Of a DNA stretch of 64,000 nt, positions 27,387 through 31,025 are shown piece after piece; the stretch's first letter is position 1; every line of letters begins with the position of its first letter. Under the pieces are notes generated by a model. That model searched no databases. It worked only from the letters and a program-made list of their open reading frames with translations, and was not told the origin of the DNA. Both the position numbers and the translations under genes were made by a program. The DNA is taken from the IMG/VR virus record IMGVR_UViG_2846005711_000006. One strand, 5' to 3'. This DNA comes from an uncultured virus (IMG/VR IMGVR_UViG_2846005711_000006). Taxonomy: Duplodnaviria > Heunggongvirae > Uroviricota > Caudoviricetes.

Positions 27387-27610
27387 TACAACTATACTTG
27401 AAAATTACTAAAAACTTAAATTTGTGTGTTTCTTTCTGATTCGACAGATTTTGTCTGTTCGATGCTTGCATATTTCTTTTTGATATACTAACCTTTACAT
27501 GCTAAGAAAGCGCATACCGGTAGAGTCGTTCTGTGCCTCACCACCTTGTAGTTACTCTACCAGTATTGTTATGCTGCAACGATCTTGACTGATCGTTCAT
27601 ATTGATGCTC

Positions 27611-29662
27611 CTATAAAAAATTTATGATGTTGAGTTTACCATTTTTAAAATCTATTAACATTCTAATAGTTTCTGATTTATCCTCAAATAAATATTTGCA
27701 ATTAGCTTTACTAGTATCTTTTTGTATTTTAATTTTACCGTTATTAATTCTATCATAAAGCCAATGCCTAGAAACTTTAAGGATTTTTGCAACTTGCGAA
27801 ATAGTAAGGTAGCCAGGTACTTCAATGGGAAGTGGATGATACTTTTTTTGAGAAATATTATTTTTTAATCGAATCCTTTCTACTGTACTTTTTAAAACAG
27901 TGTTCTTCTTGGGAGAGCGATATCCTTGTTTTTCCAGGTACTGAGCAATTTCTATATCTGTTTTGTCATCTTTGCTTAGCTTTACTATAAGTTGTTCCAT
28001 TTCTGTTGCGTTGGTTAATTCACGAAAAGAATTCACTGAAATAGGAATCTGAAAAGTGGTAGTTTCTCCACCATGCCATACAATACGTATTTGTAAGCAA
28101 TCACGTTTAATTCGGTGCGCTACTACCTTGTCAATTATGCAACGGAGAAAAGATTTTTGTTGTTGATGTGACAGAACTGGTTTATACCAAATTTCAGGTA
28201 ATTTCCTACCTATATCTAGAAATACCTCTTTCAGTTCCTCAGATAATTGAGGAGTAGGTTTTTTTGGATGTTGACGTTCAAATATAACCTCCGCATCCTT
28301 AAGGTCACTCAATGCTTGTTCCCAACGCTTTTCAAGTTCTGCAGCTACAAGACGATTATCAGGATCAACTTGATTAAATTGTCGTTCTGCCAGCTTAGCT
28401 TGATATCTTAAGCGTTCTAATTGTTGCAAACGTACTTTATTAATTGCTTGTTCAGATTGTAACTGTGAATCAATAGCTTTGGTATAAGCATCCAACTCAA
28501 TTTGACTAAGTGCTTCAAAAAATTTAGGAACTACTTCATTGTCAATAGCATCAGCAGGTAAACTTTGACATATAGGTTCAAGACCATGTTTGTACGAGTG
28601 ATTACATATATATTGGTTTCCTTTTTTGTACTTCACTATCATTTTGTATCCACATTCTCCACAATAGATTATTCCATGCAATAACAAGGCTCCTTTTCTA
28701 GGTATTCCGCGTGTTTTTCCATGCATATATTCTGGATAATTATCTTTTAGCATTGTCTGAATTTTTATAAAACTTTCCCAATCTATATAAGCTGGATATT
28801 TATCTTTTACCAAAACTTTCCATTTTTCTATTGGCAATCTTTTTGTCGTTTTTTCAGCAGAGGATAGTTTGTAATTTGTGGTACGACGACCATAAACAAA
28901 TGCTCCAGCATAAGCTGGATTCTTAAGTATCGAGAGAATTGCACACCTCTTCGGTTTTTCCCATTGTAGTTCTTTTAAATAGCTATACCTAGGAATAGTA
29001 AGTTGATGATCATGAAAATATCTTAGAACCTTTCCTGCTGATCGTTTTTCTAAAAAAGTTTTAAAAATAAGCTCAATATGATGCTGAACTTCAAGATTAG
29101 GATCCTTATGTATTGAACCGTCTGGATAACGAACAAGGCCAGCTGGAAGAGTTAAGGCTAAATCACCTCGTGTTGCTTTATTCAATAATCCAGCATTTAG
29201 TCGAGCTCTTATAGTAGATAACTCTACTTCAGCAAGTTGCCCTTTTATACCCAGTAACAATCGACCATTAATACTACCAGGATCATAGATACCATCCCTA
29301 TCAGCTATTAAACACTGTTTATAGCCACATATATCCAGTAACGGATACCAGTCAGAGCAATTCCGTGATAAACGGGTTACATCATAAGAAAGTATGATCC
29401 CTACTTGTCCTAAAGTAACTTTAGTAACAACTTCTTTAAACCCTTCACGCTTTTCAATATTAGTACCAGTTATACCAAGATCAGTATCAATTATGATAAC
29501 CTTATCAGCTTTCCAACCAAGATCAATTGCCCTTTGCTTCAACGCATACTGTAGTTCTAGACTCTCTTGATTGCTTAATATTTGATGAGGTGTTGATTGT
29601 CTTATATAAATTATTGCTTCGCGTGCTAAGTGTTGTACTGTGATTAGCTCTGACGTGCTCAT
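27611..29662 (-). CDS. Large serine recombinase (683 aa), apparently intact
   Basis: IIYIRQST, TRLSRN, ILKNPAYAG, CGECG, VDPDNRLVAAELEKRW, C-terminal HTH. Confidence 0.92.
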   Translation of the reverse strand: MSTSELITVQHLAREAIIYIRQSTPHQILSNQESLELQYALKQRAIDLGWKADKVIIIDTDLGITGTNIEKREGFKEVVTKVTLGQVGIILSYDVTRLSRNCSDWYPLLDICGYKQCLIADRDGIYDPGSINGRLLLGIKGQLAEVELSTIRARLNAGLLNKATRGDLALTLPAGLVRYPDGSIHKDPNLEVQHHIELIFKTFLEKRSAGKVLRYFHDHQLTIPRYSYLKELQWEKPKRCAILSILKNPAYAGAFVYGRRTTNYKLSSAEKTTKRLPIEKWKVLVKDKYPAYIDWESFIKIQTMLKDNYPEYMHGKTRGIPRKGALLLHGIIYCGECGYKMIVKYKKGNQYICNHSYKHGLEPICQSLPADAIDNEVVPKFFEALSQIELDAYTKAIDSQLQSEQAINKVRLQQLERLRYQAKLAERQFNQVDPDNRLVAAELEKRWEQALSDLKDAEVIFERQHPKKPTPQLSEELKEVFLDIGRKLPEIWYKPVLSHQQQKSFLRCIIDKVVAHRIKRDCLQIRIVWHGGETTTFQIPISVNSFRELTNATEMEQLIVKLSKDDKTDIEIAQYLEKQGYRSPKKNTVLKSTVERIRLKNNISQKKYHPLPIEVPGYLTISQVAKILKVSRHWLYDRINNGKIKIQKDTSKANCKYLFEDKSETIRMLIDFKNGKLNIINFL

Positions 29663-29695
29663 GAATAACCTCTTGAGATATTAACAATATATTTT

Positions 29696-30020
29696 CTAAG
29701 ACTTCCAATTTAGAACTTTGTGACATTCGCTGCCACAGTTGATATGGTTTACATGGCATAGTAATTTATACTCCTTTGCTAAAGAAACAAATTCATATAA
29801 TGATTCATATGTTAGCTTACTAACGATAAAATCTTCCCTATCAACTAAATTGGTAGCAGAAAACGGAATACTTAAAATGATATCATTACGGTAAGTAACC
29901 AATATATTGCTACCACAATGGACCCTTGAGGCTATGGTAAAAGTTCTACCAAACAGTGGATGAGTTGGGTCTGTAACTGTAATCTTGTCAGTTAATATTT
30001 TTACTTCATTGTTGAGGGGG
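29696..30020 (-). CDS. Small accessory ORF of recombinase element
   Basis: ITVTDPTHPLFGRTF motif resembles small proteins preceding this recombinase type; true start unclear. Confidence 0.45.
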
Positions 30021-30023
30021 GTA

Positions 30024-31025
30024 TTAAGATGATATCTTGACCAAAACGGCCGGGCGGTGGCACATTGGTAGAGGATTTGACTGCGTATGTAAATCGGTCC
30101 CTCTATCAAATCTTCTTGGCTCTTGTTTTGCATAGAGTGGCTGTCCGAGAGTATTCACCGTCTCATTAAAGTCTGCTGGTGCAAAATATGTTGTAAACGT
30201 GCTTGCTGTTCCTAGTGGAAAACAGTGCCCTGTATCTTTCTCAATAAATCTTCTAACCGTTCCTTCAGGGTCAGTTGCTTGCCCTCTATATTCCTCAAAC
30301 GTTATGCCACAAAATGTAAACCCTGACCTCATATCATTTCGAAGTGCTGCTCCTTCTTGCCATCTTTCATATGCTTCTTTTACTTTTGCATGAGAAGTTA
30401 GTGCATCAAAAAACTCAGGGCTTACCAAGGCATGAATTCCAGTCATATATTCACCACTTAGGTTATCTTCTATATGCCGCAATACTTCCAGACACTTACG
30501 TTTTACATCAGTTGTTGCTGTTCCAAGGGCAAAATTTACTACTTTTGGTGTTATTTCAAATTCGTTGTACAGATTTAATAATTCTGACCCATCAGCATCT
30601 AAAATTATTCCCTTCAGCGCTCCCATTCGCAAATGCTCTAATGTTATTGCATGTTTGTTTCTCATTAGCTGTAAATGGTCAGTTATTACGTCTGCTAGCG
30701 CTTTAAGTTCACTTTCTGATCCAAATGCCCTTATTCCCTGTACTTCCTCTGGTAACACTACATCATCATGCGGAATATGTGGAATCGTAAATGTTCTTAC
30801 CTTTCTTTTTCCTCTTTTTCCTACTGTTGCTGGCGCCCCTGGTACTTGCGTTGGTAATAAACTTAATACTCCGTTGTGTTCTTCTATGGTAATATGTCTA
30901 AATCTTACTGACCTACTTGGAAACAAATTTAGATTTTCAACTCGTCCATAATTTATCGGCAATATATTTATCGCATTTGTTAGTGCCGTCATGCTAAATG
31001 CTGTATTTGTAAATGGATTTTGCAT
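30024..31025 (-). CDS. Major capsid protein (lambda E family)
   Basis: MQNPF...LHTQSNPLPMCHRP. Confidence 0.93.
   Translation of the reverse strand: MQNPFTNTAFSMTALTNAINILPINYGRVENLNLFPSRSVRFRHITIEEHNGVLSLLPTQVPGAPATVGKRGKRKVRTFTIPHIPHDDVVLPEEVQGIRAFGSESELKALADVITDHLQLMRNKHAITLEHLRMGALKGIILDADGSELLNLYNEFEITPKVVNFALGTATTDVKRKCLEVLRHIEDNLSGEYMTGIHALVSPEFFDALTSHAKVKEAYERWQEGAALRNDMRSGFTFCGITFEEYRGQATDPEGTVRRFIEKDTGHCFPLGTASTFTTYFAPADFNETVNTLGQPLYAKQEPRRFDRGTDLHTQSNPLPMCHRPAVLVKISS

Follow-up and report, generated by a model that had tools for sequence, protein, structure and literature searches.

How can the major capsid gene of a phage take up 2.45 kb of DNA in its last codons and still end almost as it did before? 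The question is raised by a 64,000-nt stretch of DNA (IMG/VR record IMGVR_UViG_2846005711_000006), referred to below, at its full length, as the window, which is a stretch of Wolbachia chromosome with a phage WO prophage. On the minus strand of the window, the WO major capsid gene is entered by a small element that encodes its own large serine recombinase and that had been described, in an initial annotation made from the sequence alone, as a recent, minimal and phage-parasitic integrative element. The answer that we favour, with a probability of about 0.8, is that the element excises as a circle and re-integrates at the same capsid codon in a different copy of WO, and that a gene of the DUF5372 type, and perhaps a translationally coupled recombinase, is switched on when the ends join.

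Boundaries of the insertion

The 8-mer GTCAAGAT was found on the minus strand at positions 30034-30041 and again at 27582-27589, with a spacing of 2,452 bp, in agreement with the repeat reported by the initial annotation. As this 8-mer occurs three times in the window when both strands are counted, it is weak evidence when taken alone. The genome nearest to the window, G001, was used as the reference for the empty capsid site. Both flanks of the element are present there with 100% identity and overlap by exactly the 8 bases of GTCAAGAT, and the uninterrupted capsid, of 334 aa, ends AVLVKIVAA*. Therefore, the insertion is real and the element (27588..30039, minus strand) has a length of 2,452 bp, counting one GT; its GC content is about 0.29-0.38. 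The empty site that the initial annotation had proposed to look for is thus present, and uninterrupted WO capsids do have VKIVAA-like ends.

Serine recombinases cross over at a central dinucleotide, and its position is given by close copies of the element, which have the same boundaries. The copies at loci L043 and L044 are 100% and 99.96% identical to that of the window, and those in the genome G017 are 99.7% identical, as befits an insertion described as recent. The junctions in L043/L044 read GT-CAAGAT on the left and GT-AAAAGTCG on the right, and the right junction in run X13 continues GT-AAAAATAG, only (A)GT being common to both ends in these cases. An 8-bp target duplication was rejected on these grounds. 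The crossover is the GT dinucleotide, located on the minus strand at 30040..30041 on the left (core of the left attachment site, attL, and first two bases of the capsid Val codon) and at 27588..27589 on the right (attR core, 8 nt past the ATG of the right end). Therefore, the repeat is present at both ends as annotated, but it is not the boundary of the element: only the GT is shared, whereas CAAGAT is the element's own end, equal to this capsid allele by chance. The idea that the att site originated by the shift of an 8-nt block was weakened, since the sequence of the left arm agrees with ATG-NNN-GATC(G/A), the consensus of the family. The insertion is precise and falls at a 2-bp core, the empty site is exact and no target sequence is duplicated. 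This is the behaviour of a large serine recombinase.

The capsid end after insertion

The interrupted capsid gene (30024..31025, minus strand; 333 aa; Pfam Phage_cap_E, E=2.8e-123) ends AVLVKISS*. The element enters inside the Val codon of the terminal V-K-I, and its left att arm (30024..30039, minus strand) doubles as a surrogate capsid 3' end, which completes the V and then reads K-I-S-S-stop. The original end, consisting of the rest of the V codon and K-I-V-A-A-stop, is displaced to 27569..27587 (minus strand), about 2.45 kb downstream as initially annotated, and is identical to the empty allele of G001.

In 81/81 of the empty capsid alleles (83 loci, from which the 2 that carry the element were subtracted), V/I is followed by K; the next residue is I/V/L in 80/81, and two or three variable residues come after it. 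For any allele with GT, the element brings K-I-S-S-stop, and five loci have ISSS* as their natural capsid end. The left-end products are VKISS for the window type and VKILS for the L044 variant, and the left ends of sister elements would give VDQSP or VDQPP. The right att arm of the element fits the three invariant target bases in all of the 21 WO-like GT alleles, and the left att arm, which retains the consensus of the family, does not match the target. Alignments to solved capsids reach K330/I331, and a capsid model of low confidence (mean predicted local distance difference test score, pLDDT, 59) places residues 329-332 in a strand. Judged from sequence, insertion leaves the capsid gene nearly intact with its conserved last residues restored, in line with the initial view of a site-specific element aimed at the WO capsid. 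The restoring of a target gene is known behaviour among integrative elements.

A gene without a start codon in the integrated form

The element has three open reading frames (ORFs), all co-oriented with the capsid gene: the body of a DUF5372 gene, orf2 and the 683-aa recombinase. It is minimal, as first described, but it is not a recombinase alone. Against three sister elements, all three ORFs are under purifying selection, with ratios of nonsynonymous to synonymous substitution rates (dN/dS) of 0.16-0.44. The recombinase gene (27611..29662, minus strand; dN/dS 0.19-0.32) is unbroken, as had been noted, and encodes Resolvase, Recombinase, Zn-ribbon and C-terminal HTH_17 domains; Y19, R21, Q22 and S23 and the four Zn cysteines are invariant across 118 aligned sequences. 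Catalytic, recombinase and zinc-ribbon domains are thus all present with the catalytic Ser intact, as in a large serine recombinase. The second frame, orf2 (29523..29759, minus strand; 78 aa), overlaps the recombinase start and has no Pfam match. Its conserved part is the first ~33 aa (W..L...I...EVIH); the frame is kept in the three sister elements, with a dN/dS of 0.16-0.23 for codons 1-32, and the motif was detected with a strict pattern in 24/75 relative matches.

The DUF5372 (Y4bD/Y4pK-like) gene body (29696..30040, minus strand) has no start codon of its own when integrated, although its dN/dS is 0.24-0.44. The Pfam match to DUF5372 is weak (E=5e-4, below the cut-off), and an atlas score of 0.93 to DUF5372 clusters came with a low recognition score; a 74%-identical homologue of the corresponding protein of the sister element G059 carries the name Y4bD/Y4pK family. 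The right end of the element has, in this order, an AGGAG that overlaps the recombinase stop, an outward ATG (27598-27600; AGGAG plus ATG, 27598..27612, minus strand), 8 bases and the core GT. With the ends joined, the right end reads into the left end as MNDQSRYHLNTP... and a frame of 118 aa results. As the ribosome-binding site (RBS) and the ATG lie at the opposite end from the body, the DUF5372 gene is complete only when the ends of the element join.

This AGGAG-ATG is conserved in all right ends of the Wolbachia sister elements and in metagenomic relatives, and the same dinucleotide is found at both core positions in 17/17 paired ends of the Wolbachia sisters. In 83 distant loci, a left end was identified in 24, a right end in 45 and both in 11. 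Cores matched at offset 0 in nine of these 11, against 0-2 at other offsets, and in the two misses the script seemingly chose the wrong ATG. In none of the 11 did the 12 residues upstream of the DUF5372 body include a Met, and conservation among homologues starts sharply at the element end. Furthermore, the joined att junction exists as real DNA in G059, where a tandem head-to-tail dimer in radC (L135/L162, G059:C1 266605-271496) encodes a full 115-aa DUF5372 protein. A start at ATG 30133 in the capsid gene, which would give a 145-aa ORF in an alternative frame, was discarded because the L043/L044 alleles stop in frame at the junction. A promoter scan returned 7 sites against 11.5 expected and gave no support.

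In the model of the DUF5372 protein (pLDDT 80), a helix accompanies a four-stranded barrel. No Foldseek match was obtained at E<=0.001, and the best structural similarity (Z 5.2, root-mean-square deviation 1.9 over 47 residues) was to KOW/SH3 barrels, a widespread fold from which no function can be read.

Use of the capsid codon in other WO copies

In all the resolved contexts of this element type, namely the window, L043, L044, three right ends in G017 and run X13, the insertion is at the same capsid Val codon. Run X5 holds the flanks of the window plus L044-type flanks. In the whole genome G017, the three copies are truncated and only right ends remain, all three of the capsid type. As a separate observation, the recombinase of the capsid-type copies L125 and L126 of G017 is cut at about residue 281 by a group II intron reverse transcriptase (RT) gene, although genes of this kind are themselves targets for relatives of the element.

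Four distinct right flanks of the element were identified, 4-7 differences apart in 19 nt, three of which equal empty alleles exactly (L001, L059 and L070), the fourth having one mismatch. Because these four right flanks differ, they point to at least four integrations at the capsid codon, with L043/L044 counted once and G017 once. Among WO-like capsid alleles, the core is GT in 21/27 and AT in 6/27. The capsid was found in 34/60 genomes of the genus (92 matches), and the capsid-type element in only one of them, as remnants, so that it is rare among genomes at the species level.

In recent runs the element is common, at least 95% of its words being present in 14 runs of nine studies (13 runs, eight studies and seven coded organisms without the possible source); no RNA run was among those listed, and contigs of three runs were inspected for its junctions. 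Run X8 gave an element-only contig (27588-30040) that begins one base inside the left GT core and breaks at both ends. The element had no match among 50,697 phage records and none in a first metagenome scan; the viral scans matched L043/L044 only. A scan of genome contigs detected three truncated copies (L180-L182), not taken as further events, and a distant match was found in 1/301 genomes of the order. Separately, P0153, a member of the cluster of the window's recombinase, lies on a contig of 2,482 bp, the length of the element plus 30, which may be a closed circle assembled at k=31 or equally a shared flank.

Targets of related elements

Sister elements are found in Wolbachia (G057, G050, G059, G061, G037 and G049), with a recombinase identity of 76-80% where full length. 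Like the capsid element, they have three ORFs, about the same length and a right end of the RBS-ATG-8 nt-core type. Unlike it, they have AA, CA or GA cores instead of GT, their att arm reads CGATCAA instead of CAAGATA, and they split either radC, at (S/A)-H-N-H-P, or an intron RT, at D-I-x-x-x-F-D, restoring nothing. The G059 type (core CA) is flanked by radC-like sequence, as judged by eye, in 9/11 left ends and 6/8 right ends, split at H-N-H-P; RadC was recognised in 6/6 flanks submitted to Pfam, and there was one non-radC site among the 11 left ends. The G057/G050 type (core AA) targets a group II intron-type RT in antisense, with RVT_1 in both G057 flanks submitted.

The eight copies of the G061 type (core AA) lie at varied sites with mismatched flanks. 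The left flanks of L136, L146 and L148 in G061 share ~160 bp and the right flanks of L158, L163 and L170 ~70 bp, the pairs being mostly mismatched; this points to copies that have rearranged with one another or to a target that is short and repeated. A further type with a GA core was seen in G050 (L155, L165 and L168), with three identical right flanks, and G015 has 10 copies (L020, L026, L030, L034, L038, L042) of a broadly similar but distant (34%) recombinase.

More generally, at least 6,008 recombinase clusters were related at E<=1e-100 among 8,000 candidates scored, and relatives were present on plasmids in 420 records at 801 places, often in multiple copies, a unit of the plasmid pNGR234a (see below) among them. 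In distant relatives, an RT-like motif was detected in 17/43 right flanks, and confirmed in the three submitted to Pfam. Relatives with a TA core (L185, L199, L238 and L239) insert in recombinase genes of the family to which they themselves belong, at a D-G-V-Y-D-P motif. Those with AG or AA cores at L202, L205, L209, L210, L211, L248 and L252 have a common target, approximately A-I-S-A-A-Q-L-A-Y-M, on the opposite strand.

In a tree of 45 rows, made with a quick method with Shimodaira-Hasegawa-like approximate likelihood ratio test (SH-aLRT) values only and rooted at the midpoint, the window was neighbour to the G061 type and fell within a Wolbachia clade. AA or CA cores are found in the other members of this clade, and elements that target RT genes are both inside and outside it. 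As the tree nests the window among Wolbachia elements with other targets, the capsid target is probably derived, a trait of one sub-lineage and not of the whole family.

Known systems

By its gene order (DUF5372 gene, with a weak Pfam match, small ORF and recombinase of ~680-690 aa) and by a DUF5372 start codon found only across the joined ends, the element is classed here as a member of the y4bA/DUF5372-type mini-elements, for which no formal definition was found in print. The names y4bD-y4bA presumably refer to the DUF5372-recombinase unit of pNGR234a of Sinorhizobium fredii NGR234. In this unit (NC_000914.2 33989-37258), as in the element, the DUF5372 gene comes first and a small ORF overlaps the start of the last gene, a recombinase of ~690 aa, which is 33% identical to that of the element over 660 aa. 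Unlike the element, the unit has an extra helix-turn-helix gene and a length of ~3.3 kb, and its equivalent of orf2 has only an 18-aa match to that of the element.

In the TnpX/TndX elements Tn4451 and Tn5397, a single large serine recombinase reportedly excises a circle and re-inserts it at a 2-bp core, and the circle junction is said to form a promoter that switches expression. The junction of the capsid element would instead make a translation start for a separate small gene, and the element has no cargo or mobilisation genes.

The gene-family-targeting large serine recombinases of Durrant et al. (PMC10083194) resemble the element in their conserved coding site and central dinucleotide core. 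The main text of that paper holds no mention of capsid, radC or reverse transcriptase, and its supplementary database may list the family of the element. The multi-targeting (DUF4368/TndX-like) clade that it describes is marked by DUF4368, present in 63% of the clade, and is delimited by this domain plus over three clusters of target genes per 90% cluster. The recombinase of the element has no DUF4368 match, and there is one target gene in its resolved contexts, which are a small sample. The sr1-sr4 serine recombinases of phage WO (PMC9203015) belong to the same enzyme superfamily; WO's own enzyme (493 aa versus 683 aa for that of the element) integrates the whole prophage. The passages of that paper that were consulted contain no mention of a second recombinase element in the WO head module, and the supplements may bear on its novelty. 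They also describe Wolbachia as lacking a transformation system and suggest serine recombinases for insertion (PMC9203015). The literature search, which most subscription papers lay beyond, returned no paper on y4bA/DUF5372-type elements or on this one.

Genomic context

The prophage in the window has modules for its own recombinase, baseplate, head and replication and, further along, tail-type genes, assigned by eye from translations. WO's own serine recombinase (18275-19756; 493 aa) and the capsid, decoration, protease, portal and baseplate genes have open frames with the expected Pfam domains. An IS110 outside the element (25892..27465, minus strand) is frameshifted and sits where the head-tail attachment gene (25581-25895) begins; the copy is identical in G001, whose capsid site is empty. 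A related intergenic sequence without IS110 runs straight into the ATG of the head-tail attachment gene. The gene for the terminase large subunit (34150-35981) is frameshifted after 507 aa, with the nuclease domain cut at 202 of 294, and this C-terminal break is also present in G001. Thus, the statement that many neighbours of the recombinase are broken holds for IS110 and the terminase but is overstated for the other genes checked. Elsewhere in the window, the ORFs 2571-3656 and 8695-9729, which lie on opposite strands, share their N-terminal 60 residues, the probable result of an inverted duplication.

Discussion

In the explanation that we favour, the recombinase would excise the element as a 2,452-bp circle (attL x attR), as expected from established serine-recombinase chemistry, and the circle would integrate (attP x attB) at the GT of the terminal Val codon in the capsid gene of another WO prophage in the same cell. 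More tentatively, the joining of the ends might turn on the DUF5372 gene, and the overlapping ORFs might couple the translation of orf2 and the recombinase, so that the circle would make more recombinase than the integrated copy; the latter, being co-oriented with the head genes, could be read through on WO induction. As it would be made only from the joined form, the DUF5372 protein is less plausible as a classical excision factor than as a helper of integration or an amplifier that acts in trans; for the excision role orf2, made from the integrated form, may be a better candidate. The lineage would have left the targets of its sisters, group II intron RT and radC, which these destroy, for a nearly harmless site, and because of this switch it would ride in multi-copy prophages and spread with any WO genome still packaged. 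No packaging signal was identified on the 2.45-kb circle; the element could therefore move only within a prophage that is itself packaged, and from one Wolbachia strain to another it would pass as a passenger of packaged WO DNA.

Several points weigh against this explanation. The terminase of the window prophage is frameshifted, as in G001, so packaging of this copy cannot be assumed. L043 and L044 have the same right flank and the three G017 copies the same context, so each set may represent one event, and the sample is small, with the capsid-type element in 1 of 60 genomes of the genus, as remnants. The contig of run X8 hints at a junction with another first core base, and may come from a non-capsid or non-GT site. 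No circle junction or excision joint was present in three contig sets, although contigs drop rare forms. The tree was made with a quick method and rooted at the midpoint. Finally, the K-I match may simply reflect the similarity of attP and attB that recombination requires, and not selection for capsid function.

Among the rival explanations, it is unlikely that the element is a multi-targeting, insertion sequence-like element of low specificity, with the capsid hits due to a short motif or to sampling and the restoration of the capsid a coincidence. The nearest sister type, G061, with its eight copies at varied sites and mismatched flanks, would fit this idea, as would the single non-radC site among the 11 left ends of G059, the ambiguous flanks in run X8 and the fact that two viral searches covered phage contigs only. 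However, in a whole genome, G017, 3/3 right ends are of the capsid type, the other sisters are gene-specific (radC in 9/11 left ends of G059; RT in G057/G050), and the changed att arm fits the invariant bases of the target. A little less probable still is that one old insertion was spread among WO prophages by homologous recombination or module exchange, with the element as a passive passenger. The WO copies are indeed mosaic, L043 and L044 combine the same right flank with different left flanks, and the G017 copies share their context; but four right and four left flanks differ up to the GT, most of them equal to existing empty alleles, while the element itself is 99.7-100% identical, and crossovers within a few bases of the junction would be needed every time.

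Very improbable, in turn, is a regulatory switch in which particle assembly would be under the control of excision, through a change of the capsid C-terminus from ISS to IVAA. It is true that the final residues differ after insertion and that excision would bring back exactly the original ones, but the tail after V-K-(I/V/L) varies in length (2-3) and in sequence, ISSS* is a natural allele, and most capsids are without the element. Just as improbable is that the element is a satellite of the phage, with a circle of its own packaged into WO particles. The strict association with WO head genes and the presence of at least 95% of the words in 14 runs of nine studies (13 runs and eight studies without the possible source) could be read in this sense; against it, the three ORFs include none for replication, terminase, capsid redirection or the hijacking of packaging, and neither a circle in the three contig sets nor a packaging signal was identified.

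Beyond this locus, a wider reading can be put forward tentatively, at somewhat below even odds. The element may belong to a very large, undescribed three-gene family of serine-recombinase elements that lives on other mobile elements and retargets quickly by rewriting its att core and arms; within Wolbachia, lineages 76-80% identical would have settled in group II introns, in radC and in the WO capsid. The capsid lineage would have changed from a destroyer of genes into a benign passenger by taking the conserved terminal codons of the capsid into its att arm. All lineages would be governed by an SH3/KOW-like accessory protein present only in the circle, its translation being turned on by recombination.

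For Wolbachia, the analysis adds a mobile element that lives inside phage WO and had no match in the literature search. Its target, the capsid gene of 34/60 genomes with a GT core in 21/27 WO-like alleles, appears to tolerate the insertion. Close relatives of its recombinase switch between three defined targets with different cores within one bacterial genus, a compact natural series for learning how serine recombinases choose their sites. The start codon made by the joined ends would be a regulatory design open to direct testing, and it places DUF5372 in a context for the first time.

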